A stretch of DNA of 64,000 nucleotides from an uncultured Actinomycetota bacterium (GTDB taxonomy: Bacteria > Actinomycetota > Actinomycetes > Streptosporangiales > Streptosporangiaceae). The stretch is taken from assembly GCA_963833885.1 (NCBI GenBank), contig CAWHZU010000023.1:56935-120934 (forward strand). The letters run 5' to 3'. Below are positions 6,629-30,563 of the stretch, piece after piece. Under the pieces are notes generated by a model that did not search any database, was not told the origin of the DNA, and saw nothing but the letters and a program-made list of their open reading frames with translations. Every line of letters starts with the position of its first letter. The first letter of the stretch is position 1. Made by a program: the position numbers and the translations under genes.

Positions 6629-6668
6629 GACATTGATTGTTGCACAACCCGCGGACAGTCGACTGCGC

Positions 6669-7292: not shown

Positions 7293-7300
7293 GCCGGTCC

Positions 7301-15186: not shown

Positions 15187-17712
15187 TCATTCGGCGCGGA
15201 GCGCGAGTGCCGGCGGGGTGCGGGCGGCGCTGCGGCCCGGCATCGCCGCCGCCAGGTTGGCGAGCAGGATCGTGCCGAGCGCGACCAGCGTCAGCGCCCC
15301 GGCCGACACGGCCGGGGCGGGCACCGCGTAGATCTGCCGGGCGAACAGGGTCCACAGGAACCGGCCGAGCGCGATGCCGAGCGGCATGCCCACCCCGATC
15401 CCGATGACCGCAGCGACCGACGCCTGCCAGGCCACCGTACCCGCGAGCTGACGCCGGGTGAACCCGAAGGTCTTCAGCACCGCCAGATCCCGCCTGCGCC
15501 GGCGCACCGAGGCGAACAGGGTAAAGGCAAGCCCGGCGAACGCACCCACCGCCAGCCCTCCAGCCAGCAGGTCCGGCGCGGCGCCCATCGAGCGGTAGTT
15601 CGCGATCTGCGCCGGGTGCTGTACCCGGATCACGTTAAGGGTGACGCCCCGGCATGAGCTGCTGGCCGGCAAGGTGGCGGCCGTCCTGGTGACGGCGGTG
15701 GCGACTCGCTGCAGCGACGCGTGGCCGGCCGCGGCCGTCACCCCGGAACGCAGCCGGACCAGGGCCATGGCCGGCGGCCCGTCGCAGCCGGCCGCCATCG
15801 AGCCGAGGATCTGGGCCGAGGCTAGCGCGCCGGTGCCGAGCGAGCTGTGCAGCCCCTGGGACAGCCCGACCGTCGGCATCGTGGCCGTGCCCACGATGAC
15901 CAGACGGGCATGCACGAAGCTGCCGACGCTCGCGGTCACCGTGCCGCCGAGGCGTTGGTGAAGTTGCGCGAGGGTGGCCTGCCCGAGGACGATCTGGTCG
16001 CGGCCGTCAACAGGATGCCCGGACAGGATCGGCGGGGCGACCGTTGCGCGCGGACGGCCGAACAGCAGGGGCACGGCCTGGCCGTCCACGTTGGCGGAGG
16101 CAAACCAGATTAGGGTCCAGGCTGCGACCTCCGGGTCGCTCCGCATCCGGCTCGCCAGCTGTGATTGCGGCACCGTGGCGTAGCCTCCGTCGGCCGAAAT
16201 GCCGTAGGACCAGTTCCACCCGTACAGCGCGGGATGTGAGACCAGCGTGGCCAGGCTGCTGCCGAAGGTGAGCGTGGCCACCACCATGAGCACGGCCAGC
16301 ACGGCTCCCGTTATGGCCGAGCGGGCCGGGACCGCGCCGCGGCCGCGGCCGGGGTCAAACGCGAAGTCGATGCCCGCAACCGCCGCCGCGGGCAAGCCGG
16401 AAGCCGCGGCCAGCCGCGCCGGGCCCGAACCCGCGGCGCCGCGCGCAGACGTCACGGGAGCGGGGCGCCGCACGGCCCGGCGGCCGAGCAGGACGGCCAG
16501 CGCGGCGAGGATGCCGGCCAGGACAAGGAAGCCGGGCCCGAGTACGGTCCAGTCCGGCGCGATGCCCGGCGACGGGTACACCGGCCGCACCGGCCCGATC
16601 GGGCCGATCGGGGAGAGGGCGACGGCGACGCCGACTGCGAGCAGCGAGCCCGCGACGACCGCGGCCAGGAGGCCAGTGAGGCTGTCGGCCACGATCATCG
16701 CGGGGCCGGCGCCCAGCGCCCGGAGCACCTGCGCGTCACCGGAGCCCACCCGGATCAGGCGGGCGATGGCCTGCCCGGCGATCACCAGCGCGGCGATGCC
16801 GGCGACCAGCGCGAACGCGGCCAGCGCGATCCAGTCCGGCTCGATGACACTCTGCGCCTGCGCCTCGGTGACGGAGGCGACCTGGTACAAAGCCGTGGCC
16901 GTCTGCCCAAGCTGGCCGTTGATCTCGCTCTCGACCGTTGCGGCGCCCCCGGTTCCGTGGTCGAGCTGCAGCCCGAACCAGGAGATGCCGCTGCCCGTCC
17001 CAGCGCGCAGCAGCTCCCGGCTGAGCGCGGGGGTGAGCAGCAGTAAGCCCTGCTGGCGGTTGATATCGTCCTGGACGATCTCGCTGTTGAAGTCGACCAG
17101 GCCGGTCAGCCGGGCCCGCACCCTGAGCACCGGCCGCACTCGTGCCGTGCCGAACCCAGGCGACTCCGACTGCGCGCTGGTGTAGAAGCCCAGCGGGACG
17201 GTCTCACCCACGTGCAGGCCGAGCAGCCGGGCCGCTTCGGTGTTCAGCACGAACTGGTCCGGGCGGCGCGGGTCGGCCATCTGCCCCTGGGTCACGGCCA
17301 CCCGGTCCTGCGTGAAGTAAAGGCCGTCGACGCTGGCCAGAACCTCCACCCGGAAGCTGTTGAGGAGGCTGGAGTCGGCCGGCGCCCCGCCGGGCCGCAG
17401 CAAGCTGGTAACCGGCTCAAAAGCACTCTCAACCCGTGTCACGTCGGGCAAGTGCCGGACCGTGGCGGCGAACGGCGGCAGCCTTGAGTACGAGATCTGG
17501 CCCACCGCGTTGTACTGGACGATCAGGTCCGAGGGATCGGTACTGGCCACGAACACCGGGAACGACGACTCGGTCCGACGCGCTGCGGCCGCCGACGCCA
17601 GCGCGACACCGCCGACCAGGCCGACCAGGAGTACCAGCGAAAGGTGGCCGCCCCAGCGTCGGCCGAAGGTAGCCCGAAACCGGTACCAGGCCATCCGCAG
17701 CACAGGTCCCAT
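15187..17712 (-). CDS. FtsX/MacB-like ABC transporter permease, paralogue 1 (about 840 aa, duplicated FtsX modules)
   Basis: Conserved N-terminus AWYRFRATFGRRWGGHLSLVLLVGLVGGVALAS. Large extracytoplasmic domains alternate with 4-TM FtsX bundles. 30-45% identical to the three permeases on the opposite strand. Confidence 0.85.
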   Translation of the reverse strand: MGPVLRMAWYRFRATFGRRWGGHLSLVLLVGLVGGVALASAAAARRTESSFPVFVASTDPSDLIVQYNAVGQISYSRLPPFAATVRHLPDVTRVESAFEPVTSLLRPGGAPADSSLLNSFRVEVLASVDGLYFTQDRVAVTQGQMADPRRPDQFVLNTEAARLLGLHVGETVPLGFYTSAQSESPGFGTARVRPVLRVRARLTGLVDFNSEIVQDDINRQQGLLLLTPALSRELLRAGTGSGISWFGLQLDHGTGGAATVESEINGQLGQTATALYQVASVTEAQAQSVIEPDWIALAAFALVAGIAALVIAGQAIARLIRVGSGDAQVLRALGAGPAMIVADSLTGLLAAVVAGSLLAVGVAVALSPIGPIGPVRPVYPSPGIAPDWTVLGPGFLVLAGILAALAVLLGRRAVRRPAPVTSARGAAGSGPARLAAASGLPAAAVAGIDFAFDPGRGRGAVPARSAITGAVLAVLMVVATLTFGSSLATLVSHPALYGWNWSYGISADGGYATVPQSQLASRMRSDPEVAAWTLIWFASANVDGQAVPLLFGRPRATVAPPILSGHPVDGRDQIVLGQATLAQLHQRLGGTVTASVGSFVHARLVIVGTATMPTVGLSQGLHSSLGTGALASAQILGSMAAGCDGPPAMALVRLRSGVTAAAGHASLQRVATAVTRTAATLPASSSCRGVTLNVIRVQHPAQIANYRSMGAAPDLLAGGLAVGAFAGLAFTLFASVRRRRRDLAVLKTFGFTRRQLAGTVAWQASVAAVIGIGVGMPLGIALGRFLWTLFARQIYAVPAPAVSAGALTLVALGTILLANLAAAMPGRSAARTPPALALRAE

Positions 17713-17886
17713 GTTGCATCACCCTCGCCCATGCCCGTCGGCGTCACGGTGTCTCACCGTGTCCGAGACCGGCCGCTACGGCCAGCATGCTGGCTGGCGT
17801 CCGCCGGGTGTGTCAGCACCACCCGTCCCCGGGATGCCGCTGCCAGGTGAGCCGGCAACGGTGTGCTAGTACTACCTCCCCTCTAG

Positions 17887-19290
17887 GTGGCTGCTCACTG
17901 GCGGCAGGACCGCGGATGCGAGAGCTTAAATGCCGTGGGACACAGTGCGCTGCCCGAACGAGCCATCGGCGTCTTCCTCGCCGACGACAACCTGATCGTG
18001 CGCGAGGGCGTCCGGGCGCTCATCGAGCGGGATCCGGACCTGCGTGTGGTGGGGGTGGCCGCCGACTACGACGAGGTCATCAGCGGCACCGCCGCCACCG
18101 AGCCGCAGGTCCTGGTCACCGACGTGCGGATGCCGCCGTCCTTCCACCGCGAGGGCATCGACGCGGCCAAGGAGGTGCGCAAGCGCTTCCCGGGCACCGG
18201 CGTAGTGGTGCTGTCGCAGTACGACGACCCCGAGTACGCGGTGTCATTGCTGGCCGAGGGCTCGGCCGGGTACGGCTACCTGCTGAAGGACAGGGTCGCC
18301 GAGGGCAACCAGCTTGCCGACGCCATCCGCAGCGTGGCCACCGGCGGCACCGCGCTCGACCCCGCGATCGTCGAGGCGCTGGTCCAGCCGGTCACCTCGC
18401 CCGGCGAGCTCGCTCCCGCCGAGGAGGAACTGCTCGGCATGATCGCCGAGGGCAAGCCGATCAAGGCGATCGCGGTCGCCAGGCGGGTGCCGCCCGAGGC
18501 GGTGGACGCCGAGGTCGAGGCCGTGTTCGTGAAGCTGGCGGCCGGCGTCGCCCAGGGCAACCCGGCGGCGCTCAACCGGCTCCGGCTGCTGCACCAGGCG
18601 ATCGTCGACCGCGAGGAGCAGGGCGAGACGCTGTCCCGGCTGCTGCCGGGCAGGCTCGCCGAGAAGCTCCGCAACTCCAGGCAGCGGATCGGCGAGACCG
18701 AGACCGTGGTCGTGACCGTGCTGATGAGCGACATCCGGTCCTACTCGACGATCGCCGAGCACGCCGACCCGGCAAAACTCGCAGGTCAGCTCAACACTCA
18801 CCGAGCGGCCATGAACCGTGCGATCCTCGGTGAGGGGGGTACCGTCATGCAGTTTGTCGGCGACGCGGTGATGGCGGTGTTCGGCGCGCCGTTCCCCCAG
18901 CCCGACCACCCCGACCGGGCCGTTGCGGCGGCGGCGGGCATGCACGCGCTGCAGGCCGAGATCAACGCGAGCTGGGCCGCCGAGGGGCTGCACGAGTTCG
19001 GCCTCGGCATCGGGCTGTCCACCGGCCAGGTCGCCGCGGCCCTGCTCGGCTCGGAGGAACGGCTCGAGTACACGCTGGTCGGCGACACGGTCAACCTGTC
19101 CCAGCGGCTGCAGCAGCTCGCGGAGGCTGGCGAGACCGTGCTGTCCGAGCCCACCCACCGCGCCCTGACCGTTCCGTCGGACGCGATCGCGCTGCCAGCC
19201 CAGCTGGTGAAGGGCCGCGATACGCCAATCCTCGCCTACAAGCTTGCCCGCAGCGGCACCCCCGTCGCTGCCGGGCCTATGAACCCGTGA
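17887..19290 (+). CDS. Response regulator with receiver, LuxR-type HTH and class III adenylyl/guanylyl cyclase domains
   Basis: NarL-type REC (VFLADDNLIVREGVRALI...VLVTDVRMPP...VVVLSQYDD...GYLLK). LuxR HTH-like segment (ELLGMIAEGKPIKAIAVARRV...AVFVKLA). CHD cyclase (VVVTVLMSDIRSYSTIAE...FVGDAVMAVFGAP...GIGLSTGQVAAALLGSEERLEYTLVGDTVNLSQRLQ). Confidence 0.85.
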   Translation: MAAHWRQDRGCESLNAVGHSALPERAIGVFLADDNLIVREGVRALIERDPDLRVVGVAADYDEVISGTAATEPQVLVTDVRMPPSFHREGIDAAKEVRKRFPGTGVVVLSQYDDPEYAVSLLAEGSAGYGYLLKDRVAEGNQLADAIRSVATGGTALDPAIVEALVQPVTSPGELAPAEEELLGMIAEGKPIKAIAVARRVPPEAVDAEVEAVFVKLAAGVAQGNPAALNRLRLLHQAIVDREEQGETLSRLLPGRLAEKLRNSRQRIGETETVVVTVLMSDIRSYSTIAEHADPAKLAGQLNTHRAAMNRAILGEGGTVMQFVGDAVMAVFGAPFPQPDHPDRAVAAAAGMHALQAEINASWAAEGLHEFGLGIGLSTGQVAAALLGSEERLEYTLVGDTVNLSQRLQQLAEAGETVLSEPTHRALTVPSDAIALPAQLVKGRDTPILAYKLARSGTPVAAGPMNP

Positions 19291-19315
19291 ATACCCAACC
19301 GACCCGGGGGGGCCG

Positions 19316-20050
19316 ATGACCGAGAACCGTGCCGCACTGACCATGCGCGGCGTGCGCAAGACCTTCGAGGCCGAGAACGCGCCGGTACGGGCGCTGCGCG
19401 GCGTGGACCTGACCGTGGCTTCGGGCGAGTTCGCCGCGCTGATGGGCCCGTCCGGCTGCGGCAAGTCCACCCTGCTGAACCTCGTGGCCGGGCTCGAGCT
19501 CGCCGACGAGGGAACGATCACGGTCGCCGACGAGGAGGTGACCGGGCGCGGTGAGGACGACCTGGCCCGGCTGCGGCGCAAGCACATCGGCATCATCTTC
19601 CAGTTCTTCAACCTGCTGGAGGGGATGACCGTGCTGGAGAACGTTGCGCTGCCCGCCGTGATCGCCGGCCGCAAGCGCAAGATGGCCGAGACCAGGGCCA
19701 GGGATTTGCTGGACCTGCTCGGCATCGGCGACAAGGCGGCCGCCGTGCCCGGCGTGCTGTCCGGCGGGCAGCGGCAGCGGCTGGCGATCGCCAGGGCGCT
19801 GGCGAACGAGCCGACCCTGCTGCTGGCCGACGAGCCGACCGGCGCGCTGGACTCCGATGGCGGCCAGGAGGTCATCGAGCTGCTGAGCCGACTGCACGCG
19901 GGCGGCCAGACCATCGTCATGGTCACCCACGACGCGCAGGTGGCCGGCGCGGCCGGGCGCATCGTGCGGATGCTCGACGGCCGCATCGTGCAAGCCGACC
20001 CGGGCGGGAGCACCGAGACCGGCGCCGGCATCCCGGTCGAGGCGCACTAG
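19316..20050 (+). CDS. MacB/LolD-type ABC transporter ATP-binding protein
   Basis: Walker A GPSGCGKST, signature LSGGQRQRLAIARAL, Walker B LLLADEPTGALD. Confidence 0.95.
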   Translation: MTENRAALTMRGVRKTFEAENAPVRALRGVDLTVASGEFAALMGPSGCGKSTLLNLVAGLELADEGTITVADEEVTGRGEDDLARLRRKHIGIIFQFFNLLEGMTVLENVALPAVIAGRKRKMAETRARDLLDLLGIGDKAAAVPGVLSGGQRQRLAIARALANEPTLLLADEPTGALDSDGGQEVIELLSRLHAGGQTIVMVTHDAQVAGAAGRIVRMLDGRIVQADPGGSTETGAGIPVEAH

Positions 20051-20072
20051 CCGTCGCCGGCCCGCCGCCTAC

Positions 20073-22610
20073 CTGGCGTGGTACCGGCTCCGAGCCACGC
20101 TGCGCCGCCGGCTTGGCGGCTACCTGGCGCTAGCCGTGCTGGTGGGCCTCATCGGCGGCATAGCGCTGGCCTCCGTGACCGCGGCCCGGCGGACCGAGTC
20201 GTCCTACCCGGACTACCTGGCCAGCACGAACCCGTCGAGCCTGATCATTCAGCCGAACTCGAACATCAACGTGTCCTCGGCGGCCCAGGCGAACCAGATC
20301 TACCAGCACATGCTCAGCCGGCTGCGGCACCTGCCGCACGTGACCGGGCTGGCCACGGCCGATGCCGTCAACGCCGCCATGCTGACGCCGCGCGGCGGGT
20401 ACGGCACGGTGCTGTTCACCCAGGTGCAGCTTGTGACCAGCGGTGATGGCATGTTCACCCGCCAGGACCGGCTGACGGTCACCGCAGGCCACCGGGCGGT
20501 GCGCGCGAACCAGGTGGTGGCGACTGCCAGGGCCGCCGCCGTGCTGCACCTGCATGTGGGCTCCCGGCTGCGGCTGGGTGTCTGGGCGTCGAGCCCCAAG
20601 CCCGGGCTGCCGCCGTTCTACCGCAAGCTCGACCTGACCGTGACCGGCATCGGCGTGGTGAGCACGCAGATCGTGCAGGACGACATCGACGCCGACCGCA
20701 CCGGGTTCCTCATCGGCACCCCGGCGCTGGACCGGGAGTTCATGCCGTGCTGCACCGGAACCTCCTATATCGGGCTGCAGGTAGCGGGCGGCGCCCGGTA
20801 CGACGCGGCCGTCGACCAGGGCTACGTGAACCTGGCGACCTCGATCTTCGGCGCCGGATCCGTCCAGTTGCTGCAGCTGCTGCAGGTCTACAACACCTCG
20901 GCGATCGAGGCGGAGGCGCAGCGCGCGATCTACCCGGAGGCGATAGCCCTGGGCGTGTTCGGGCTGATCGCCGGGCTCGCCGCGCTGATCATCGGCGCCC
21001 AGGCGGTGTCCCGGCAGCTTCGCGCGGCCACCGACGACGCGAGCGTCCTGCGGGCGCTCGGCGCCGGCCCGCTGGCCGCCACCGCCGACGGCGTGCTCGG
21101 GGTGCTCGCCGCCGTGGTCGCCGGGGCGCTGCTCGCTGTTGCCGTCGCGATCACGCTGTCCCCGTTCTCGCTTTTCGGGCCCGTCCGGCAGGCACAGCCG
21201 GGGCGGGGGTTCTACGTCGACGCCACGGTGCTCGGGCTGGGCGCGCTCGCGCTCATCCTGGTCCTCGGCGGGGTGGCCGCGGTCATCGGCTACCGCCAGG
21301 CACCACACCGCGCCGCCGCCCGCACGCACGGCGCCGACCGCGGCTCGGCCCTGGTGCGCGCCGGGCTCGGCGCCGGGCTCGGCGCCACCGGCGTGGCCGG
21401 GCTGCGGTTCGCGCTCGAGCCGGGCCGGGGACGGACCGCGGTGCCGGTCAGGTCCGTGCTCACCGGCGCGGTGCTGGCCGTGACTGTGATCGCTGCCACG
21501 CTGACGTTCGGCGCCAGCCTCACCAACCTCATCGCCCGGCCCGCCCTCTACGGCTGGGACTTCAGCTACGCGCTGTACTCGACCGATGGATGGGGACCGT
21601 TCCCGGCGGCGCGGGTCACACCGATTCTTGACCGGGACAAGCTGATCGCCACCAGCACCGGCGTGTATTTCCTGACCGTGCAGATCGACGGGCAGACGGT
21701 CCCGGGGATCCTGTCCCCCGCCCGCCCGGCGGTCGGCCCGCAGATCCTGTCCGGCAGCGGGCTCAACGGTCCCGGCGACATCGTGCTCGGCCCGGCCACG
21801 CTCGCCGCGCTGCACAAGAAGGTCGGCGACAAGGTCACCGTGCGGCTCGGCCCGGTGATCCGCGACGACACGCTGACGGTCTCCGGCACCGCGGCGCTGC
21901 CCGCGCTCGGCGACACGCTCGGGATCCATCCCTCACTGTCCACCGGCGCGATCCTGCCGGTCAGCGCCGTATCCAAGGCCGCGCTTGACGAAGATGGCCC
22001 GGATTCCGGCCCCAACGCGATCCTGATACGGCTGCGGCCCGGCGTCAGCCAGGCCGCCGGGCTGCGGTCGCTGCAGCAGATCGCCAACACCTACAACAAC
22101 ATCGTGCACTCCCCGCAGACGGTCGCCGAGGCGGGCCCGTCGGCGCTGGAGCTCGTGGCCAACGTGCTGCCGGTGCAGCGGCCCGCCGAGATCGTCAACT
22201 ACAAGTCCATGGGCACGATGCCGGTGATCCTGGCCGCAGGCGTGGCCGTCGGCACGGTCGCCGCGCTCGGGCTGGCGCTGGTCACGTCGGTGCGGCGGCG
22301 GCGGCGCGACCTCGCGCTGCTGAAGACGCTGGGCTTCACCCGCAGGCAGCTCGCAACGACCGTCGCCTGGCAGTCCACCGTGGTCGCCATCGTGGGGCTG
22401 GTCATCGGGATACCGCTGGGCATCGCGGTCGGCCGCTGGCTGTGGATCGTGTTCGCCCGCGAGCTGTCCACGGTGCCGGATGCGGTCGTCCCGGCCGGAT
22501 CGGTGGCGCTGGCCGCCGTCGCCGCGCTGGTCCTGGCCAACCTGGTCGCCGCGCTGCCCGGCCGTTCCGCCGCCCGCACCCCGGCCGCCCTGCTGCTCCG
22601 GGCGGAGTGA
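20073..22610 (+). CDS. FtsX/MacB-like permease, paralogue 2 (no canonical start codon in the conserved N-terminus)
   Basis: ORF track starts at GTG 20136 (MLVGLIGG). The in-frame upstream sequence encodes the conserved (L)AWYRLRATLRRRLGGYLALAVLVGLIGG seen in all paralogues. The only candidate initiator is CTG 20073, aligned with the Met of MAWYRF in paralogue 1. No purine-rich RBS. Confidence 0.7.
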   Translation: MAWYRLRATLRRRLGGYLALAVLVGLIGGIALASVTAARRTESSYPDYLASTNPSSLIIQPNSNINVSSAAQANQIYQHMLSRLRHLPHVTGLATADAVNAAMLTPRGGYGTVLFTQVQLVTSGDGMFTRQDRLTVTAGHRAVRANQVVATARAAAVLHLHVGSRLRLGVWASSPKPGLPPFYRKLDLTVTGIGVVSTQIVQDDIDADRTGFLIGTPALDREFMPCCTGTSYIGLQVAGGARYDAAVDQGYVNLATSIFGAGSVQLLQLLQVYNTSAIEAEAQRAIYPEAIALGVFGLIAGLAALIIGAQAVSRQLRAATDDASVLRALGAGPLAATADGVLGVLAAVVAGALLAVAVAITLSPFSLFGPVRQAQPGRGFYVDATVLGLGALALILVLGGVAAVIGYRQAPHRAAARTHGADRGSALVRAGLGAGLGATGVAGLRFALEPGRGRTAVPVRSVLTGAVLAVTVIAATLTFGASLTNLIARPALYGWDFSYALYSTDGWGPFPAARVTPILDRDKLIATSTGVYFLTVQIDGQTVPGILSPARPAVGPQILSGSGLNGPGDIVLGPATLAALHKKVGDKVTVRLGPVIRDDTLTVSGTAALPALGDTLGIHPSLSTGAILPVSAVSKAALDEDGPDSGPNAILIRLRPGVSQAAGLRSLQQIANTYNNIVHSPQTVAEAGPSALELVANVLPVQRPAEIVNYKSMGTMPVILAAGVAVGTVAALGLALVTSVRRRRRDLALLKTLGFTRRQLATTVAWQSTVVAIVGLVIGIPLGIAVGRWLWIVFARELSTVPDAVVPAGSVALAAVAALVLANLVAALPGRSAARTPAALLLRAE

Positions 22611-22634
22611 AGCCATGCGTCAAAGGAACTCGCT

Positions 22635-25151
22635 ATGAGCGGGCCGACGGTCCGGGTGGCCGTCTACCGGCTGCGGGCCACCCTGCCCCGCCGGTGGGGC
22701 GGGTACCTGGCGCTGACCCTGCTGGTCGGCCTCGTCGGTGGTGTGGCGCTCGGGTCGCTAACTGCGGCCCGCCGCACCTACGCGTCCTACCCGGCGTTCC
22801 TGGCCAGCACAAACCCGTCCGATCTGTTCGTGCTGCCGCAGACGAGCAGCCCCGAGCCCGGCCTGGTGAACAGCCTGGCCCGGCTGCCGCACGTACGCAG
22901 CGCCGAGGAGGGCGAGCAGATCAACGCGGCGACATTGACGCCAGGCGGCAAGGTCCAGACGGTCCTGGAAACCCAGGTGGAGCTCGTCGCCAGCCCGAAC
23001 GGGCTGTTCACCGACCAGGACAGGCTCAAGATCATCAAGGGGCGCGCCGCCGACCCGGCGCGGGCGGATGAGGTGGTGGCCACCAACGAGGCCGCATCGG
23101 TCCTGCACCTGCACGTCGGACAGCGGATCCCGGTCGGGATTGTCCGCAGCAGCAGCCAGAACGAGCAGCTGTACCGGCGCACCAAACTGACGGTGGTGGG
23201 GATCGGCGTGCTCGGCATCCAGCTCGTGCACGACGACATCGACAGCAACCGGGCCGGGTTCCTCGTCGGCACGCCGGCGCTGCTGCGGCAGTACGAGTCC
23301 TGCTGCGCCACAAACAGTTACGACGGGTTGCAGCTCGACGGCGGCAGCCGCTACGCAACGACGGTCCTGCAAGGGTACGAGCGCCTGATCGACAACCCGG
23401 CGCTCAGCCACGGCCAGCTCGTGGTCTACCAGACGGCCGCCATCGAGGCCGAGGCGCAGCAGGCCATCCGGCCGGAAGCGGTCGCCCTCGCTGTGTTCGG
23501 GGTGATCGCCCTCGTCGCCGCGCTGATCATCGGCACCCAGGCGATCTCCCGCCAGCTTCACGGCGGCGCCACAGACACCGAGGTGCTGCGGGCGCTCGGT
23601 GCCGGCCCGGCCACGACAATGGCCGACGGACTGCTCGGCGTGGTGGCCGCCACCGTCGCCGGGGCACTGCTCGCCGCCGCGGTCGCGGTCGGCCTGTCAC
23701 CGCTCACCCTGTTCGGGCCGGTAAGGACCGTGCAGACGGCACCCGGCATCGACGCCGACTGGGCCGTCCTCGGGCCGGGCATGGCCGTGCTGGCCGTAGG
23801 CCTGGCGCTGGTGGCGGCCGGCATCGGCTACCGGCTGGCGCCGCAGCGCGCGGCACGCCGTGCCGGGGCAGCGGGGCGCGGCTCGAGCGTCGTCGGCGCC
23901 GCACTAGCCGCCGGGCTTCCGGTCGCCGGCGGGGCGGGCCTGCGGTTCGCACTGGAGCCCGGGCGCGGCCGGACCGCGGTCCCGGTCCGGTCGGTCATGG
24001 CCGGGACCGTGCTGGCGGTTGTGGTCGGCATCGCCACGCTGACGTTCGGCGCCAGCCTGACCACGCTGGTCTCCCACCCCTCGCTGTACGGCTGGAACTT
24101 CGACTACGCGCTGTACTCGGTCGACGGCTACGGCCCCGTTCCGTCGCGGTGGACAACCCCGCTGCTGGCGCGCGACCGGGACGTGGCCGCCGCCACCGGT
24201 GCCTACTTCGCGACGGTCCAGATCGACGGCCAGACCGTGCCGGGCATCGCTGTCTCCACTCCGGCGGCGATCACGCCGAGCGCGCTGACAGGGAACAAGC
24301 TGGGCGGGGGCGGGCAGATCGTGCTCGGGCCCGCGACGCTGGCCGCGCTGCACATGCGGGTTGGCGACACCGTGACCGTGTCCGAGGGACAGATCATCCC
24401 GCCGACCAGGCTGCGGATCGTCGGGACCGCGGCGCTGCCCACGATCGGGGACGTCATCGGCGTGCACGCGTCGCTGAGCACCGGCGCGATCATCTCCACC
24501 AGATCGCTGCCAGCGGCGGACCTGACCGCCTATGGCCCGGTCTCCGGCCCCAACGCGGTCTTCATCCGGCTGCGGCCCGGGGTCAGCAAAGCGGCCGGGA
24601 TGCGCTCGCTGAACCAGATCGCCGCCCAGCTGAACCAGGACTCCCACGGGCCGCTGGTCGAGTCGCTCTTCGGCAACATCGGGCAGTACATCAAATTCGT
24701 GTCGGTGCTGCCGGTGCAGCGGCCGGCCGAGATCGTGAATTACCGGACCATGGGCGCGATGCCCGCGGTGCTGGCCGGCGGGCTCGCGGCCGGCGCGGTG
24801 GCCGGGCTCGGGCTGACGCTGGTGGCGTCGGTGCGGCGCAGGCGGCGCGACTTCGCGACGCTGAAGACGCTCGGCTTCACCAAAGGCCAGCTCGCGGCAG
24901 CGGTCGCCTGGCAGTCCACCGTGGTCGCGGCCGTCGGCCTGGTGGTCGGCGTGCCGGTGGGCATAGCCGCAGGCCGCTGGCTGTGGCTGGCGTTCGCCCG
25001 CGAGCTGTCCGCCGTGCCGGACCCGGTGGTTCCCGCCGGGTCGATCGCCTTGGCCGTGGTCGCGTCCCTGGTGCTGGCCAACCTCGTCGCCGCGCTGCCC
25101 GGCCGCGCCGCGGCCCGCACCCCCGCCGCCATCGTGCTCAGGGCCGAGTGA
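22635..25151 (+). CDS. FtsX/MacB-like permease, paralogue 3
   Basis: 838 aa, same architecture. AAAGGAA RBS before the ATG. Confidence 0.85.
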   Translation: MSGPTVRVAVYRLRATLPRRWGGYLALTLLVGLVGGVALGSLTAARRTYASYPAFLASTNPSDLFVLPQTSSPEPGLVNSLARLPHVRSAEEGEQINAATLTPGGKVQTVLETQVELVASPNGLFTDQDRLKIIKGRAADPARADEVVATNEAASVLHLHVGQRIPVGIVRSSSQNEQLYRRTKLTVVGIGVLGIQLVHDDIDSNRAGFLVGTPALLRQYESCCATNSYDGLQLDGGSRYATTVLQGYERLIDNPALSHGQLVVYQTAAIEAEAQQAIRPEAVALAVFGVIALVAALIIGTQAISRQLHGGATDTEVLRALGAGPATTMADGLLGVVAATVAGALLAAAVAVGLSPLTLFGPVRTVQTAPGIDADWAVLGPGMAVLAVGLALVAAGIGYRLAPQRAARRAGAAGRGSSVVGAALAAGLPVAGGAGLRFALEPGRGRTAVPVRSVMAGTVLAVVVGIATLTFGASLTTLVSHPSLYGWNFDYALYSVDGYGPVPSRWTTPLLARDRDVAAATGAYFATVQIDGQTVPGIAVSTPAAITPSALTGNKLGGGGQIVLGPATLAALHMRVGDTVTVSEGQIIPPTRLRIVGTAALPTIGDVIGVHASLSTGAIISTRSLPAADLTAYGPVSGPNAVFIRLRPGVSKAAGMRSLNQIAAQLNQDSHGPLVESLFGNIGQYIKFVSVLPVQRPAEIVNYRTMGAMPAVLAGGLAAGAVAGLGLTLVASVRRRRRDFATLKTLGFTKGQLAAAVAWQSTVVAAVGLVVGVPVGIAAGRWLWLAFARELSAVPDPVVPAGSIALAVVASLVLANLVAALPGRAAARTPAAIVLRAE

Positions 25152-25161
25152 GGGACATGGG

Positions 25162-27747
25162 ATGAGTCGCCTCGATGCCGGCCCCAACCAGCGAGTGAGC
25201 GCCAGCGTGCCCCCGGCACGCGGCGCGCTGCCGCGGCTGGCGTGGTACCGCTTCCGGGCCACGTTCCGCCGCCGCTGGGGCGGCTACCTGGCCTTGGCCG
25301 TGCTGATCGGCCTGGTCGGCGGCGTGGCGATGGGCTCTATGGTGGCTGCCAGGCGCACCGACGCGTCGTACCCGAAGTTCCTGGCCAGCACCAACCCGTC
25401 GGATCTCGTCGTCGAGCCGTTCACGAAGACGAATTACTCGCCCGCCTTCCTCCGCCAGCTGGCCCGGCTGCCGCATGTGACCGGGGTCGCGGCAGCCGTG
25501 CCGCTCACGGCGGCCACCCTCACCCCGAGCGGGAAGCTCGGCACAGTCCTGCTCGCGCACGTGCAGCTGGCCGGCACTCTCGCCGGTGCTGACGGCATCT
25601 TCTCTGCCCAGGACCGGATGACGATCGTGCGAGGACGCGCGGCCGATCCGGCGCGGCCGGACGAGGTGGTGGCTACCCCGGTTGCGGTCGCGCTGCTGCA
25701 CCTGCACGTGGGGTCGCAGGTACGGGTTGGGCTGATCCGCAACTCCGGCAGCGGCGGCCTCTACGGACATGCGGATCTCACGGTCGTGGGGATCGGGGTG
25801 CTCAACACCCAGGTTCTGCAGGACAGCGTCGACTCCGGCCGGACCGGCTTCCTGGTTGGCACGCCCGCGCTCACCCGGGAATTCGCCTCCTGCTGCGCCA
25901 GCGGCATGACCGTCGGCCTGCGCCTGGACGGCGGCGGCACGTACGACACCGCCGTCGGCAACGAGTACCAGCAGCTGCTGGCCACCAGCCCCTACATCTC
26001 GCGCGGCGGATCCGAGCTCTACGTATACGTGACCGCCGCCATCGAGGCTCAGGCGCAGCGGGCGATCCGCCCGGAGGCCATCGCGCTCGCCGTCTTCGGG
26101 CTGATAGCCGGGCTGGCCGCGCTGATCATCGGGACCCAGTCCGTGGCCCGGCAGCTCCGCGCCGGGGCGGACGACGCCGGGGCGCTGCGGGCGTTCGGCG
26201 CCGGACCGGCGATGATCATGGCCGACGGACTGCCCGGCATCGTGGCGGCGCTGGCGGCCGGGGCGCTGCTCGCCGTCGGCGTGGCCGTCGCGCTGTCGCC
26301 GTTCTCGCTGTTCGGGCCGGTGCGTGAAGTGGAACCAGGACACGGCGTCTACCTCGACTGGGCGGTACTCGGGCTCGGGGCCCTCGGACTGGTTCTCCTG
26401 CTCGGCGGGGTGGCGGCCTTGATCGCCTACCGCCAGATGCCGCACCGGCTGGCCGGCCGCGAGCATGAAGCTGACCGGGGACCAGCTGCGGTCCGGGTAG
26501 TGGCTGCCGCCCGGCTCCCGGCCCCGGCAGTGGAGGGAATGCGGCTTGCCCTGGACCCGGGGCGGGGGCGCACCGCGGTACCGGTCCGCTCTGTCCTGGC
26601 GGGCGCGGTACTGGCCATGACAGTGGTCAGCGCCACCCTCACCTTCGGAGCCAGCCTGGCGACGCTGGTCTCGCATCCGGCGCTGTACGGGTGGAACTTC
26701 AGCTACGCCCTCTACGCGGTCCAGGGCTGGGGCAGCGTGCCCGTCAGGTGGGCCGGCCCGCTGCTGGCCCGCGACCGGGCGGTGGCCGCCACGACGGGGG
26801 TGGTCTTCGCGACGGTCCAGATCAACGGCCAGACCGTCCCCGCCATGGTGGCCCCCACCCGTCCGGCGGTGGGCCCGCACATCCTGTCCGGGCACGGGCT
26901 CGACAGCAGCCACGAACTCGTCCTCGGCCCGGCCACCCTGGCTCAGCTGCACCAGCGGGTCGGCAGCACCGTGACGCTGGCCAGCGGCAGCTTCCATGTC
27001 CGGCTCAGGATCGTGGGCACGGCCACAATGCCAGCGATCGGCAGCGTGCTGACCGTTCATACCTCGATGAGCACCGGGGCGCTGTTCTCCACGGCCGTTC
27101 TCCCCGAGGGAGCCGGTTCCGGACCGTTCGGTCCGCTCCTTTATGGGCCCAACGCCATCCTCATCCGGCTGCGGCCCGGGATCAGCCAGGCGGCAGGCCT
27201 GCGATCGATGCAGGCCGTCAGCCGACAGCTCGCCGGAGCGCTGAACTCGCCGCGCGAGGAGGCGGCCACCGGCGGTCTATCGGTCGCGGACGCCGTAGAC
27301 CTGCTGCCGGCCCAGCGGCCGGCCGAGATCGTGAACTACCGGGCCATGGGGGCCATGCCAGCAGTGCTGGCCGGCGGGCTCGCCGCTGGAGCCGTGGCAG
27401 GCCTCGGCCTGACGCTGGTCGCCTCGGTCCGGCGCCGGCGCCGGGACTTCGCGCTCCTGAAAACGCTCGGTTTCACCCGCGGGCAGCTGGCAGGCGCGGT
27501 TGCCTGGCAGTCTTCCGCGATTGCCGTGATCGGCCTGGTGATCGGCGTGCCGGTGGGCATCGCGGCCGGCCGCTGGCTATGGCTGCTATTCGCGCATGAG
27601 CTGTCGGCGGTACCCGACCCGACGGTCCCGGTCGGCTCGATCGCCCTGGCCGGGCTTGGCGCCGTGGCACTGGCCAACGTGGTCGCCGCGCTCCCGGCGC
27701 GGCGGGCCGCGCGAACGCCGGCGGCTGAAGTCCTGAGAGCGGAGTGA
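25162..27747 (+). CDS. FtsX/MacB-like permease, paralogue 4
   Basis: 861 aa, same architecture. GAGGGA RBS. Stop overlaps the kinase start (ATGA). Confidence 0.85.
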   Translation: MSRLDAGPNQRVSASVPPARGALPRLAWYRFRATFRRRWGGYLALAVLIGLVGGVAMGSMVAARRTDASYPKFLASTNPSDLVVEPFTKTNYSPAFLRQLARLPHVTGVAAAVPLTAATLTPSGKLGTVLLAHVQLAGTLAGADGIFSAQDRMTIVRGRAADPARPDEVVATPVAVALLHLHVGSQVRVGLIRNSGSGGLYGHADLTVVGIGVLNTQVLQDSVDSGRTGFLVGTPALTREFASCCASGMTVGLRLDGGGTYDTAVGNEYQQLLATSPYISRGGSELYVYVTAAIEAQAQRAIRPEAIALAVFGLIAGLAALIIGTQSVARQLRAGADDAGALRAFGAGPAMIMADGLPGIVAALAAGALLAVGVAVALSPFSLFGPVREVEPGHGVYLDWAVLGLGALGLVLLLGGVAALIAYRQMPHRLAGREHEADRGPAAVRVVAAARLPAPAVEGMRLALDPGRGRTAVPVRSVLAGAVLAMTVVSATLTFGASLATLVSHPALYGWNFSYALYAVQGWGSVPVRWAGPLLARDRAVAATTGVVFATVQINGQTVPAMVAPTRPAVGPHILSGHGLDSSHELVLGPATLAQLHQRVGSTVTLASGSFHVRLRIVGTATMPAIGSVLTVHTSMSTGALFSTAVLPEGAGSGPFGPLLYGPNAILIRLRPGISQAAGLRSMQAVSRQLAGALNSPREEAATGGLSVADAVDLLPAQRPAEIVNYRAMGAMPAVLAGGLAAGAVAGLGLTLVASVRRRRRDFALLKTLGFTRGQLAGAVAWQSSAIAVIGLVIGVPVGIAAGRWLWLLFAHELSAVPDPTVPVGSIALAGLGAVALANVVAALPARRAARTPAAEVLRAE

Positions 27748-29873
27748 TGATGGACCTGATGACGAACGCCGCCGTCGGCGATCACGCCACCACCGCGCCG
27801 CCTTGGGGCGGCAGTACGGGCCGCCGGCTCGTGGCGGGACTGCTCGTACCCCTGGTCACGATCGTGATCGTCGTGCTCGGGCTGCGTACGGCGGGCCCGC
27901 TCCCGGCCGTGCAGGCCGTCGCCTTCGGCCTGGTAATCGTCGGCGCGCTGTCCGGCGCCATCCTCGCCCGTTCAGCGCAGCGGGTGGCCCTGTGGCAGGT
28001 GGCCTTCGGCGCGCTGGCGGCGTCGGTGGCGCTCACCGCCGCGCGCCTGGGCGACCAGCCCGGCGGGCACCAGGTCGCGCGCGGCGTGGCCACGTTCGCC
28101 GTGCCGGTCGTCATCGCCGTCTCCGTGAACATGCTGCTCGCCCTTCCCGACGGCCGGCTGGCCAGCCGGGGCAGGAGAATCGGCACCGGGATCGCCTATG
28201 CCGCGGCGGCCGCGTCTGGGCTGGTGCTGGCGGCCGCCGGGCGCCCGTTCCCTGCCTGGGCGGTCGCGGTGGCCTGGCCGATCGCCGCGGCCTGCGCTCT
28301 CCCCGCGGTGCGGCTGCGCTACCTGGCTGCTGCCGCGCGAGACCAGCAGCGGATGCAATGGATGGCCGTCGGAGCCGTGCTGGCCGCCGATTCGGCGCTG
28401 GTGGCCGGGGTCCTGCACGTGCTCGTCGGCTGGCCGGGCCCGGTCGCCGCCGTGGCGGCGGGGTGCGCGTCACTGCTCGCGTTCGGCATGATGACCGGCG
28501 AGCTGTCGTCGCTCGGGTCCTACGGCGGCCGGGTCCTGGTCCAGGTACTGTCGATCGCCGGGTTCACCACCGTGGTCGCGGCCATCTACCTGGTGATCGT
28601 GCTCGGCATCGGCAGCGGGCCGAGCGACGCCGCCGATCGCGAGGTCCTCGGGCTCTCGATGCTGGCCGCCGCGGTCGCCGCGATCGGGTACCTGCCGGCC
28701 AGGGACCGGCTGGTGGCGTCGGCCACCCGCTTCGTCTACGGGGCCAAGGAGGCCCCCGACGAGACCCTGCGCACCTTCGGCTCGCGGCTGACCAGGGCGA
28801 TCCCCATGGACGAGCTGCTGCTGCAGCTCGCCGAGTCGCTGCGCAAGACCATGGCGCTGACCAGCGCCGAGGTCTACACCGGTCAGGGAGACGTGCTGGA
28901 ACGCGTCGCCGCGGTGCCGGACACCGGACCGCGGTCGGTCGTGGTGACGGACCGGGAGCGCGCTGTCGTGGCCAGGGCCGGGGTTTCCGGGAACGCCTGG
29001 GCCTCGGTCTGGCTGCCCGGTGTGCTGGACGGGCGGGCCCAGGTCCAGGTCAGGGTCGCGCCGGTCAGCCACGCCGGCGAGCTGCTCGGGCTGATCATCG
29101 CGGAGCGGGCCGCCACCGCCGACACGTTCTCCGACGAGGACGACCGGGTGCTGACCGAGCTGGCCCGGCAAGTCGGCCTGGCAGTGCACAACGCGCGGCT
29201 GGACACCGCGCTGCAGACCACGCTGGACGAGCTGCGCAAGCAGGCCGACGAGCTGCGCCAGTCCCGGGCCCGCATCGTGGCCAGCGGCGACGCCGAGCGC
29301 CGCCGGGTGGAGCGCAACCTGCACGACGGCGCGCAGCAGCACCTGGTGGCGATGGCGGTGAACCTGCGCCTGGCCCGGGACATCATGGCCGACGACCCGG
29401 ACGCGGCCGGCGAGATGATGGAGATGCTCGCCGACGAGGTCAAGAACACGATCCAGGAACTGCGCGAGCTCGCGCACGGCATCTACCCGCCGCTGCTGGC
29501 CGACAGCGGGCTCGGCGAGGCGCTCCGCGCGGCGGCGAACCGCAGCCCGCTGGCGGTCACCGTGACCGCCGACGGGATCGGCCGGTACACCCCGGACATC
29601 GAGGCCGCGGTCTACTTCTGCTGCCTGGAGGCGCTGCAGAACGCCGGCAAGCACGCACCGCAGGCCAGGGTGGCGGTACGGGTCTGGGAGGAGTCGGGCG
29701 GCCTGCTGTTCGCGGTCACCGACGACGGCCCGGGTTTCGACGCGGCCTCCGCTCGCAAGGGCCACGGGTTCGTCAACATGGCTGACCGGCTGGGCGCGAT
29801 CGGCGGCACGGCGCGCTGGGAGTCGCAACCCGGCCACGGCGCCCAGGTCCTGGGTACGATCCCGCTCCTCTGA
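27744..29873 (+). CDS. Multi-TM sensor histidine kinase (HisKA_3/NarL-type) with GAF-like linker
   Basis: About 8 predicted N-terminal TM helices, a GAF-like region, an H-box ERRRVERNLHDGAQQHLVAMAV, and a C-terminal HATPase_c (GFVNMADRLGAIGGT). Confidence 0.85.
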   Translation: MMMDLMTNAAVGDHATTAPPWGGSTGRRLVAGLLVPLVTIVIVVLGLRTAGPLPAVQAVAFGLVIVGALSGAILARSAQRVALWQVAFGALAASVALTAARLGDQPGGHQVARGVATFAVPVVIAVSVNMLLALPDGRLASRGRRIGTGIAYAAAAASGLVLAAAGRPFPAWAVAVAWPIAAACALPAVRLRYLAAAARDQQRMQWMAVGAVLAADSALVAGVLHVLVGWPGPVAAVAAGCASLLAFGMMTGELSSLGSYGGRVLVQVLSIAGFTTVVAAIYLVIVLGIGSGPSDAADREVLGLSMLAAAVAAIGYLPARDRLVASATRFVYGAKEAPDETLRTFGSRLTRAIPMDELLLQLAESLRKTMALTSAEVYTGQGDVLERVAAVPDTGPRSVVVTDRERAVVARAGVSGNAWASVWLPGVLDGRAQVQVRVAPVSHAGELLGLIIAERAATADTFSDEDDRVLTELARQVGLAVHNARLDTALQTTLDELRKQADELRQSRARIVASGDAERRRVERNLHDGAQQHLVAMAVNLRLARDIMADDPDAAGEMMEMLADEVKNTIQELRELAHGIYPPLLADSGLGEALRAAANRSPLAVTVTADGIGRYTPDIEAAVYFCCLEALQNAGKHAPQARVAVRVWEESGGLLFAVTDDGPGFDAASARKGHGFVNMADRLGAIGGTARWESQPGHGAQVLGTIPLL

Positions 29874-30449: not shown

Positions 30450-30563
30450 AAGATCAGCCTTTCACGGCCCACGGCCGCTGCCGAGGGTGCTGCCATGCAA
30501 AGCGGGGGTGTGGCCACCCCCCCGGCGTGACCGTTGCTTCCCGCGTTACCTTTCCGCCCTGCG

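Follow-up and report, generated by a model that had tools for sequence, protein, structure and literature searches.

The window analyzed here, a 64-kb stretch of DNA from an uncultured soil member of the Actinomycetota, contains four permease genes (P1 to P4) arranged around a single ABC ATPase gene of the MacB/LolD type (Table 1). Three of the permease genes follow the ATPase in a plus-strand operon that opens with a gene for a receiver-cyclase fusion protein and closes with a sensor histidine kinase gene. The fourth, P1, heads a divergent minus-strand operon that also encodes a cyclic-nucleotide-binding (cNMP) protein, an MBL-fold hydrolase, and an FAD oxidoreductase. The plus-strand genes are separated by gaps of 25, 1, 24, and 10 nt, and the stop codon of P4 overlaps the longest-ORF start of the kinase by 4 nt. 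Consensus scanning revealed no intergenic terminator in this operon, the two matches inside P2 and P4 being no more than expected by chance. Promoter and terminator consensus scans of the region from 13.5 to 31.8 kb gave nothing exceeding chance, and Rfam gave no match between 11 and 33 kb.

Table 1. Genes and sequence elements of the permease locus, and other NBD-like genes, in the 64-kb window
Feature	Position	Strand	Description
DrrA-type gene	2051-2994		Split by frameshift
FAD/NAD-binding oxidoreductase	11691..13133	minus	Last gene of operon; Pfam NAD_binding_8 / FAD_oxidored / Amino_oxidase
MBL-fold hydrolase	13123..14058	minus	HxHxDH motif; cytoplasmic; Pfam Lactamase_B_2
cNMP-binding protein	14069..15085	minus	338 aa; all-beta N-terminal domain and C-terminal cyclic-nucleotide-binding domain
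Permease P1	15187..17712	minus	841 aa; member of dispersed clade; first gene of cNMP/MBL/FAD operon
Weak palindrome copy GTACTAGCAC	17863..17872	minus	151-160 nt upstream of P1 ATG
Receiver-cyclase	17935..19290	plus	Response-regulator receiver fused to class III nucleotide cyclase; Pfam Response_reg and Guanylate_cyc; longest ORF from 17887
MacB/LolD/FtsE-type ABC ATPase	19316..20050	plus	244 aa; Walker A, signature, Walker B, and H-loop intact
Permease P2	20052..22610	plus	About 852 aa in sister assemblies; positional orthologues L087_t1, L088_t1
Permease P3	22635..25151	plus	838 aa; orthologues L087_t2, L088_t3
Permease P4	25162..27747	plus	861 aa; orthologues L087_t3, L088_t4
Sensor histidine kinase	27744..29873	plus	About 710 aa; multi-pass membrane domain of about 330 aa, GAF, HisKA_3, HATPase_c
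Single-domain response regulator	30057..30449	minus	Receiver only; conserved in all module loci
Direct repeat TGGC(C/A)(A/G)CACC	30486..30516	minus	Copies 21 nt apart, upstream of receiver-only regulator gene
NarL/LuxR-type response regulator	30564..31313	minus	Pfam Response_reg and GerE; called start 31238 gives 224 aa
Binding-protein importer NBD	48480-49289		Other ABC class
NBD-like gene	52511-53392		Adjoins another two-component system

Four permease reading frames of about 840 aa had been called in an earlier sequence-only reading of the window, and all are present as called except for the start of P2. In a tblastn search with P1, the other three permeases were matched over their full length (E values of 1e-158 to 1e-172), so that the homology is not confined to the TM bundles, and no fifth copy was found in the 64-kb window. 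At the protein level, P2, P3, and P4 are 60 to 62% identical to one another, and P1 is 46 to 50% identical to them. The conserved N-terminal motif that had been described for the copies is found in four of four, with small deviations (H for Y in P1 and L for W in P2). P2 had been placed at 20073, where the codon is CTG; sister assemblies and orthologues put the true start, a GTG or ATG, 2 to 3 nt past the stop codon of the ATPase. Both the window and the assembly L005 carry a 1-nt deletion within this GTG. As P2 therefore has no canonical start in the window, this strain may make just three copies, or the deletion may be a sequencing indel.

This deletion, together with genes that are split in related long-read assemblies (the cyclase in L003, the ATPase in L086, and a permease in L089), could be taken to mean that assembly created the duplicates, or that the copies are redundant and decaying into pseudogenes. 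Such a reading is largely refuted, and we consider it extremely improbable. The copies are not near-identical, with only 46 to 62% protein identity, and the tandem copies share 61 to 85% of their DNA sequence without any near-identical stretch. As the cluster was in addition recovered from at least six independent ENA samples or metagenomes at 99.6 to 99.9% DNA identity, assembly duplication, recent duplication, and recent gene conversion are all ruled out. Furthermore, the four frames are open, with GC3 values of 0.87 to 0.93, the GTG of P2 is intact in five of seven assemblies, and each copy has orthologues that are retained in other species.

Hydropathy indicates eight strongly hydrophobic segments and two loops of about 230 aa in each permease. 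An AF2 model of P3, of moderate confidence (pLDDT 72, pTM 0.62), places extracytoplasmic domains (ECDs) at residues 64 to 266 and 491 to 693, short coupling helices at 312 to 320 and 737 to 745, and a cytoplasmic linker with three short helices at about 399 to 452. Each modeled four-helix unit has a large ECD between helices 1 and 2 and a coupling helix between helices 2 and 3, the arrangement characteristic of type VII ABC systems, and hydropathy, model, and fold matches concur in two FtsX units per chain with an ECD each, as in YbbP-type permeases. The best PDB matches of the model are to YbbAP (9ge6 and 9ge7; full length, E value of 2e-18), followed in order by LolE, LolC, MacB, BceB, and HrtB. 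At the sequence level, the FtsX domain PF02687 is matched by all four permeases (47 to 70 bits; cutoff, 25.5) and the second ECD weakly by MacB_PCD (E value of 4e-5); a PDB sequence search with a profile of the four paralogues returned LolF alone (E value of 1e-3). The earlier description as double-FtsX proteins is thus upheld by hydropathy and the structure model, but significant Pfam matches to FtsX are confined to the C-terminal half in P1 and P2 and form two stretches in P3 and P4. The N-terminal and C-terminal halves show no significant similarity by BLASTP, and the internal duplication is seen at the level of fold and topology only. The permeases are accordingly best described as predicted single-chain pseudo-dimers, with a TM count, from hydropathy and model, of 8 rather than 10. 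Motifs at both coupling helices, LRALGAGP in the first half and RRRRRDxAxLKTLGFT in the second, are invariant in P1 to P4.

The four window copies are 45 to 49% identical in their ECDs, compared with 60 to 71% in the membrane parts. For P2 to P4, the ratio of orthologue to paralogue identity is 1.26 to 1.29 in the ECDs and only 1.03 to 1.04 in TM1, TM5, and TM6-8, and 15 of the 17 sites that are fixed within orthologue groups but differ between groups are located in ECDs. Paralogue-specific differences therefore lie almost exclusively in the two ECDs, in agreement with the diversification of extracytoplasmic domains proposed from the sequence. Because of this distribution, each permease probably has its own envelope or membrane-surface ligand; however, loops commonly evolve faster than membrane helices, and ECD divergence by itself is no proof of different ligands. 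Positional orthologues of P2, of P3, and of P4 occur in related species (L087 and L088), which makes the triplication an old one, and P3 orthologues are found in many MAGs with identities down to about 77%. In an NJ tree, P1 groups with L007 and L008, which are stand-alone copies, and apart from P2 to P4. The history had been pictured as a tandem triplication plus a divergent copy: the P2-P4 set stands, but a single event does not, P1 representing a separate, dispersed clade.

The ATPase finds its best PDB sequence matches in the NBD of MacB (1e-58), BceA (2.5e-47), FtsE, YbbA (8e-46), and LolD, and its domain-level NCBIfam matches are MacB, DevA, FtsE, and LolD. Its relatives comprise at least 120 clusters at 79 to 97% identity. 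The sequence-only reading had counted one NBD gene, and this is indeed the sole NBD of its type in the 64-kb window; the remaining NBD-like genes are of different ABC classes and only 30 to 43% identical where they align. Type VII systems with a fused-dimer permease have their NBD on a separate gene (PMC5985334), and this is what we observe here. In line with the excess of permeases over ATPases pointed out before, each related locus examined has exactly one ATPase, accompanied by one to five permeases. Other MacB-type ATPases may exist elsewhere in the genome and serve P1 or orphan copies.

The ATPase forms part of a module consisting of the receiver-cyclase, the ATPase, zero to four permeases, and the GAF/HisKA_3 kinase, alongside the two response regulators and the cNMP-binding/MBL/FAD operon. 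We find this module in Streptosporangiales-like and Acidimicrobiales MAGs, with exactly one ATPase each time. The receiver-cyclase, as first gene of the plus-strand operon, is always immediately 5' of the ATPase, and the kinase is the last operon gene in all loci, directly following the ATPase if no permease lies between. Permease numbers vary: three in the operon and one divergent in the window, three in L087, four in L088, two in L090, and two plus one in L091. The operon lacks permeases in L066 and L069 (one adjacent), L078 (two adjacent), and L092 (four upstream). Identity between the Acidimicrobiales loci and the window is about 60 to 80% for the ATPase, the cyclase, and the cNMP protein, versus about 50% for the permeases.

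On the opposite strand, the direct repeat, as TGGCMRCACC, is conserved in L087, L088, L090, and L091 and partly in L092. The FAD oxidoreductase gene occupies the same position in L086 to L091, and the MBL and cNMP-binding genes are conserved neighbors in loci of both Streptosporangiales-like and Acidimicrobiales MAGs; neither the FAD nor the MBL translation has a signal peptide. In the cNMP protein, the N-terminal domain has no Pfam match; it is a soluble all-beta fold, probably matching BAS0735. The membrane domain of the kinase likewise has no Pfam match. PADLOC matches to the Pycsar defense system cover shared domains only, and for this reason we reject a defense function. PycC is stand-alone, whereas the window cyclase is fused to a phospho-receiver domain and encoded in a kinase operon; Pycsar effectors fuse the cNMP-binding domain to a TIR or membrane-disrupting domain, neither of which is present in the window protein; and the block is syntenic across many MAGs, unlike a mobile defense island.

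The permease family as a whole amounts to 3,542 clusters at 50% identity (E value of ≤1e-30), with several copies per MAG; ten distant representatives are almost all metagenome proteins, with one from a Pseudonocardiales MAG. A survey of 79 genome loci covered 92 permease genes: 67 of these lack an ABC NBD in the locus as fetched (typically 10 kb to either side), and for only 6 is there one within 3 kb. When 1,247 ORFs from 80 loci were clustered all against all, no conserved partner gene emerged beside orphan permeases, the largest non-permease cluster covering 8 loci. Many dispersed permease genes do carry a conserved palindrome-plus-promoter element, GTGCTAGCAC-N16-GCTGACCACCTTGG. In the window, the copy GTACTAGCAC upstream of P1 is not significant alone (about 2.1 such matches are expected by chance) and its second block is degenerate, while the motif GCTGRCCACNCC is very degenerate and confounded with codon usage. 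Across 83 dispersed copies, the best-conserved segment is the TM6-TM7 coupling loop (mean top-residue frequency, 0.89). The orphan relatives and the signaling context of the module did not feature in the sequence-only reading.

The Acidobacterial Duplicated Orphan Permeases (ADOP; TIGR03434) are similar in that they, too, are FtsX permeases with an internal duplication, are about 800 aa long, and occur as large paralogous families, with genes mostly not beside an ABC ATPase, although three of the window copies lie behind an NBD gene. According to the curators of TIGR03434, ADOP genes are reportedly essentially never found beside NBD genes. P1 and P4 score 28.8 and 23.8 bits against this model, in the last FtsX unit only, and P2 and P3 give no match; with a cutoff of 622.3 bits, the window permeases are therefore not ADOP members. 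They also differ in belonging to Actinomycetota rather than Acidobacteria and in having a dedicated conserved ATPase, a signaling module, and a shared promoter element.

For the acidobacterial family an ATP-free function has been left open, most of the relatives studied here have no nearby ATPase, and P1 lies outside the ATPase operon. It is thus conceivable that the adjacency in the window is merely regulatory, with the ATPase pairing with one permease or none of the four and the others using distant ATPases or no ATP. We judge this improbable, since both coupling-helix motifs are invariant in P1 to P4 and the second is the best conserved in the dispersed copies, P2 to P4 are tightly packed 3' of the ATPase in an order conserved across species, and a second MacB-type NBD is absent from the 64 kb.

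Escherichia coli YbbAP(-TesA) (PDB 9ge6, 9ge7, and 9ge8; PMC12646458) likewise combines a single-chain duplicated FtsX permease bearing two MacB-kind ECDs with a separate NBD gene of the same type, and operates by mechanotransmission at a 2:1 ATPase:permease stoichiometry (PMC12646458). However, sequence identity to the window proteins is about 15%, and YbbP has 10 TMs, with TM5 and TM6 as two linker helices (PMC12646458), where we predict 8 TMs and a cytoplasmic linker. YbbAP also has one permease per ATPase and no attached signaling genes. YbbP partners with the periplasmic esterase TesA, whereas no GDSL esterase is encoded near the window permeases and, because the MBL and FAD proteins have no signal peptide, a secreted enzyme partner is not evident here. 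LolCDE resembles the locus in having one ATPase gene (lolD) and two paralogous FtsX-type permease genes. LolC and LolE, though, are four-helix half-units of one heterodimeric complex, whereas each gene here is predicted to encode a full pseudo-dimer, so that the copies must be alternatives and not subunits of one complex.

The proposed parallel to BceAB-BceRS is apt as an analogy, in that a type VII ABC system with a BceA-like NBD is genetically tied to a two-component system, but the defining features of BceAB are absent. Each ATPase of a Bce module serves a single permease, compared with one to five here. BceS has two TMs and no sensor domain and pairs with an OmpR-type regulator. The window kinase is instead a multi-pass GAF/HisKA_3 kinase accompanied by GerE/NarL, receiver-only, and receiver-cyclase regulators. 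BceB is described as having 10 TMs and only one ECD, between TM7 and TM8, and BceS as a small intramembrane-sensing kinase (PMC3023708; PMC5985334); the window permeases have eight predicted TMs and two ECDs. The window system is not a BceAB member.

The BceAB-BceS precedent, in which a type VII permease serves a kinase as its sensor (8g3a, 8s5g; PMC3023708), nevertheless suggests that the permeases could mainly be input devices. As in the flux sensing of BceAB-BceS, permease-ATPase complexes would then report ligand engagement to the multi-pass kinase, which would drive both the receiver-cyclase, whose signal would be read by the cNMP-binding protein, and the NarL-type regulator. The location of the ATPase agrees with this, as it remains between receiver-cyclase and kinase where the permeases separate (L066, L069, L078, and L092), as do the overlap of the kinase start with the P4 stop and the far higher conservation of ATPase, cyclase, and cNMP protein relative to the permeases. 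Yet this kinase differs in type from BceS and could sense directly through its own large membrane domain and GAF domain, and contact between permease and kinase is an assumption, co-transcription fitting plain co-regulation equally well. We regard this sensory reading, which overlaps with the explanation favored below and differs from it in the primary output, as possible but rather unlikely. In a more elaborate form, which we think unlikely, receiver-cyclase, ATPase, and kinase would be a hub with plug-in YbbP-like extracytoplasmic sensor heads, each signaling a different envelope ligand to the kinase, and the output would be a cyclic nucleotide plus the GTGCTAGCAC-marked dispersed permease regulon. 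If true, the locus would be a combinatorial sensory system and not a transporter set, and by analogy perhaps the ADOP-type orphans would be too.

The explanation we favor, and hold to be fairly likely, is a YbbP-like and ADOP-like variant of type VII (MacB/FtsX-superfamily) ABC systems in which a single soluble ATPase is common to several alternative permeases. Most likely this is a known transporter class in variant form and not a new kind of system. The ATPase would act as a dimer common to P1 to P4. Each permease would contain a pair of four-helix FtsX units, with one ECD apiece, joined by the cytoplasmic linker, and as a complete pseudo-dimer it should therefore bind two ATPase copies, through its two conserved coupling helices. 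ATP-driven motion would then be passed on to the permease's own ECD pair by mechanotransmission, as in other type VII systems. The ATPase would be co-transcribed with the receiver-cyclase and the multi-pass GAF/HisKA_3 kinase, and on the opposite strand lie the genes for the NarL-type regulator and the receiver-only regulator and the cNMP-binding/MBL/FAD operon. All four permeases would dock onto, and be powered by, the same ATPase; kinase and regulators would control permease expression, and cAMP or cGMP would be the pathway output. The position of P1 in another operon, on the opposite strand, and in another clade counts against a motor shared by all four.

Multitasking ABC ATPases include MsiK of Streptomyces. 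MceG of Mce transporters (PMC9947336) and FhuC of Staphylococcus aureus (PMC10147376) provide precedents for one ATPase energizing several membrane complexes that differ in specificity; the ABC classes concerned (Mce systems and importers) are different ones, and the sharing is experimental there, whereas we infer it here.

In the literature searched, we found nothing specific on ADOP, on multi-permease type VII systems, or on FtsX together with a cyclase, and no description of a link between type VII ABC systems and cyclic-nucleotide signaling, which this locus now provides. Fused FtsX permeases without a nearby ATPase, as exemplified by ADOP, previously had neither a candidate motor nor a regulatory context. 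The actinobacterial counterpart offers both, in the form of a very conserved ATPase within a kinase/cyclase module and the promoter element of the dispersed copies. The idea that one ATPase energizes many type VII permeases thereby becomes directly testable, in a family common among those soil and peat Actinomycetota for which MAGs are the only source.

The four permeases P1 to P4 (each of about 840 aa) and the ABC ATPase beside them were recovered both by GC3-filtered ORF calling and in a plain ORF list of the window (G+C, 68 to 75%), and all five reading frames are open throughout. In a tblastn search of the window with P1, the only further copies were P2 to P4, each matched over its full length (E = 1e-158 to 1e-172), in agreement with the common architecture described in the sequence-only reading. 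That reading would have taken near-identical copies as a sign of assembly duplication, but protein identity is 60 to 62% within P2 to P4 and 46 to 50% between P1 and the others, and the tandem copies are 61 to 85% identical as DNA, with no near-identical tract. Contigs of at least six ENA metagenome assemblies encode a protein identical to P3, with the gene order of the window and 99.6 to 99.9% DNA identity to it, and the arrangement of four permeases and one ATPase is therefore real, an assembly artefact being excluded. Overall, decay or artefact is a most improbable explanation of the copies. Among named relatives, "Streptosporangiaceae bacterium" and Trebonia MAGs are the closest.

Features of the window, with coordinates where available
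Feature	Coordinates	Strand	Remark
Split DrrA-type ABC ATPase	2051-2994	+	ORFs 2051-2368 and 2365-2994, different frames
cNMP-binding protein, MBL-fold hydrolase, FAD oxidoreductase			with P1, on the other side, diverging from the plus-strand operon
P1	15187-17712	-	ORF calling
Weak palindrome copy	17863-17872		151-160 nt upstream of P1
Receiver-cyclase	17935-19290	+	first gene of plus-strand operon
ABC ATPase	19316-20050	+	ORF calling
P2	ends at 22610	+	tandem gene, ORF calling
P3	ends at 25151	+	tandem gene, ORF calling
P4	ends at 27747	+	tandem gene, ORF calling
Histidine kinase	27744-29873	+	last operon gene
Receiver-only and NarL/LuxR-type regulators		-	downstream of kinase
Direct repeat	30486-30516	-	upstream of receiver-only regulator
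IS605-family OrfB/TnpB gene	~31386-32861	-	adjoins LuxR regulator
Second ABC ATPase, with LuxR-type regulator and soluble GAF/HisKA_3 kinase	52511-55244	-	paired

Hydropathy places eight strong membrane segments in each permease, in the order TM1, a loop of ~230 aa, TM2 to TM4, a linker of ~55 aa, TM5, a second loop of ~230 aa, and TM6 to TM8. An AlphaFold2 model of P3 (56 sequences; mean pLDDT, 72; pTM, 0.62) agrees with this order of segments: each loop folds into a mixed alpha/beta domain, and residues 312 to 320 and 737 to 745 form short helices on the cytoplasmic side. Its top Foldseek match in the PDB is E. coli YbbAP over the full length (9ge6/9ge7, E = 2e-18), followed by half-length matches to LolE, LolC, MacB, BceB, HrtB, and YtrF. 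YbbP, a mechanotransmission protein that binds two YbbA ATPases, joins two MacB-like units in a pseudo-symmetric fusion and has 10 TMs, two of them linker helices (PMC12646458; PMC5985334), whereas the family seen here is a direct 4+4 fusion. The earlier label "double FtsX" holds at the level of the fold and not in sequence, since Pfam shows FtsX clearly only for the C-terminal unit and a BLASTP comparison of one half with the other is not significant. The N-terminal motif singled out earlier corresponds to the cytoplasmic helix plus TM1, and is presumably the usual entry motif of MacB-type permeases. The ATPase, of the MacB/LolD/FtsE/BceA/YbbA type, carries all catalytic motifs.

Successive genes of the plus-strand operon lie 25, 1, 24, and 10 nt apart, and the final pair overlaps by 4 nt. 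Its kinase comprises a multi-pass membrane region of ~330 aa, for which Pfam returned no match, followed by GAF, HisKA_3, and HATPase_c domains. The whole block, from the operon to the two regulators and the divergent genes, is found again in every related locus examined (L066, L069, L078, L087, L088, and L090 to L092), each with one orthologous ATPase gene, as expected if a single NBD serves the set. The permeases number three in L087, four in L088, two in L090, and two plus one beside the LuxR gene in L091; in the Acidimicrobiales loci L066, L069, and L078, the kinase directly follows the ATPase and one or two permeases lie beside the LuxR gene. L092 has none between ATPase and kinase and four upstream (1-8478), which belong to a more distant subfamily and are 31 to 35% identical to P3, so the core is able to associate with different permease lineages. 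Such loci, in which the ATPase remains with kinase and cyclase while the permeases move off, would suit permeases that act chiefly as sensor heads for the kinase, by analogy with BceAB and BceS. This reading partly overlaps that of a shared motor; however, the kinase has large membrane and GAF domains of its own, and we consider it unlikely.

The ATPase, the cyclase, and the cNMP-binding protein are highly conserved, and at least 120 clusters (90% identity) are 79 to 97% identical to the window protein for the ATPase and 73 to 92% for the cNMP-binding protein. Between Acidimicrobiales and the window, identity is 73 to 80% for the ATPase, ~58 to 75% for the cNMP-binding protein, and 62 to 79% for the receiver-cyclase, versus ~50% for the permeases (loci including L066, L069, L078, L040, and L042), a pattern consistent with very strong constraint or, alternatively, with lateral transfer of the core between classes. 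The N-terminal domain of the cNMP-binding protein is a soluble all-beta fold and probably matches BAS0735, a protein of unknown function. A Pycsar-type defence role for the cyclase and cNMP-binding pair, which draws on shared domains only, was set aside. Over the aligned parts only, the NBD of the second ABC ATPase is ~35% identical to the cluster ATPase and its kinase ~28% to the cluster kinase.

In a neighbor-joining tree of 97 family members, P2 clusters with the first tandem gene of L087 and of L088, P3 with the second of L087 and the third of L088, and P4 with the last of both, L088 holding one additional copy; orthologues between these species are 66 to 86% identical. Since each copy groups with its positional counterparts, the sequences indicate that the triplication is older than the species compared. 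P1 is placed apart from these, together with the stand-alone L007 and L008 genes and within an extensive radiation of Acidimicrobiales copies; thus, of the proposed "tandem triplication plus divergent copy", the triplication stands as an ancient set and P1 belongs to a different clade. Orthologues (same position, different species) and paralogues (same genome) differ most in the two extracytoplasmic domains, with identities of 71.5% versus 55.4% in ECD1 and 72.3% versus 57.4% in ECD2, compared with 81.2% versus 78.5% in TM6 to TM8 and 78.8% versus 75.5% in TM5. In addition, 15 of 17 sites fixed within and different between orthologue groups fall in the ECDs. The distinctness of each paralogue therefore resides in its outward-facing part, as the first reading had anticipated, and the membrane and ATPase-facing parts are in effect interchangeable.

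A relatives scan with one genome per species returned at least 547 confirmed relatives. With a profile, 3,542 clusters (E <= 1e-30) were retrieved from 1.84 billion cluster representatives, and those sampled are metagenome proteins without names. The best 79 loci of the relatives scan are mostly from Acidimicrobiales MAGs of soil and peat, often several per MAG. Among their 92 permease genes, 67 lack an ABC NBD throughout the retrieved locus and just 6 lie within 3 kb of one, and clustering of all neighboring ORFs revealed no recurrent partner gene. Scattered permease genes without a nearby NBD also characterize the ADOP family, which is an analogue only, because the window proteins score 24 to 29 bits against a TIGR03434 cut-off of 622. 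Apart from the clusters of the window, L087, and L088, 83 copies were compared, most of which are dispersed; their most conserved segment is the TM6-TM7 loop (SVRRRRRDLALLKTLGFT; mean top-residue frequency, 0.89), and LRALGA of the TM2-TM3 loop is also retained. Both motifs coincide with coupling-helix positions of the P3 model, and the orphan permeases thus look made for docking an ATPase supplied in trans. That the ATPase serves one permease only, or none of P1 to P4, is quite improbable, since these coupling motifs are conserved and so is the tandem order.

Dispersed permease genes (L007 to L085) share an upstream element that begins with G-GTG-GTGCT(A/G)GCAC-GA, a 10-bp palindrome with flanks, and continues with 16 to 17 nt, GGCTG(A/C)CC(A/C)CCTTGG(c)C, 17 nt, and CA(G/C)ACT (in short, GTGCT(A/G)GCAC, 16 to 17 nt, GGCTGACCACCTTGG, 17 nt, CAGACT). 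The palindrome is centered ~30 nt upstream of the -35 hexamer, which like the -10 hexamer is sigma-70-like, and the element lies, for example, ~112 nt (L016) or ~147 nt (L030) before the permease start. A search of 1.73 Mb gave 52 occurrences of the extended pattern (1 to 5 in shuffled sequence), 47 of them within 260 nt upstream of a same-strand permease N terminus. As the paralogues are only ~50% identical as proteins, the element is kept by selection rather than inherited through recent copying, and its distribution suggests a regulon. The L007 orthologue of P1 and the L088 cNMP-binding gene likewise have the element upstream; the window has only a weak copy (GTACTAGCAC), with a degenerate second block and non-significant alone. 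A direct repeat, TGGC(C/A)(A/G)CACC, with copies 21 nt apart (TGGCCACACC / TGGCAGCACC in the window), lies between the LuxR-type and receiver-only regulator genes; it is conserved in L087, L088, L090, and L091 and partly in L092, and its words resemble those of the permease element. L069 and L078 have GTGCTAGCTC at its position. The NarL-type regulator of the module is the most evident candidate binder of these sites. Of the six sister assemblies listed, five carry the neighboring IS605-family gene, an insertion that varies between strains, since L002 has a Band_7 gene there.

The P2 start first placed at 20073 is a CTG and needs revision. In the orthologues of L087, L088, and L090, as in five sister assemblies, a GTG or ATG start codon of P2 follows the ATPase stop at a distance of two or three nt. 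The window and assembly L005 share a 1-nt deletion within this codon (TAGCCGTGCGCC -> TAGCCGT-CGCC, window 20050-20056) that is absent from those five assemblies and from the P2 orthologues. Translation from the next canonical start codon, a GTG at 20136, would yield a protein that lacks half of TM1 and all of the conserved N-terminal motif. Because these assemblies carry further single-gene splits, the deletion may be a long-read indel error or a true polymorphism of a strain without the normal P2 translation start. The split DrrA-type gene is either a pseudogene disrupted by a frameshift or a further case of an assembly indel.

The protein class (type VII ABC, YbbP-like fusion) and orphan duplicated FtsX permeases (ADOP) are already known, and in other ABC classes MceG and FhuC are examples of an ATPase that is shared. 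As far as the literature was searched, new elements are the 8-TM fused variant, with one to five copies in each locus and one conserved ATPase as their putative partner; its fixed link to the receiver-cyclase, multi-pass GAF kinase, and cNMP-binding operon in two actinobacterial classes; and the promoter element common to dispersed copies. We favor, with somewhat better than even confidence, a shared-motor type VII ABC system in which one ATPase dimer would dock in turn onto several complete YbbP-like permeases, the ECDs of individual permeases would act on different envelope ligands, and the whole would be coexpressed with, and controlled by, a two-component/cyclic-nucleotide circuit.
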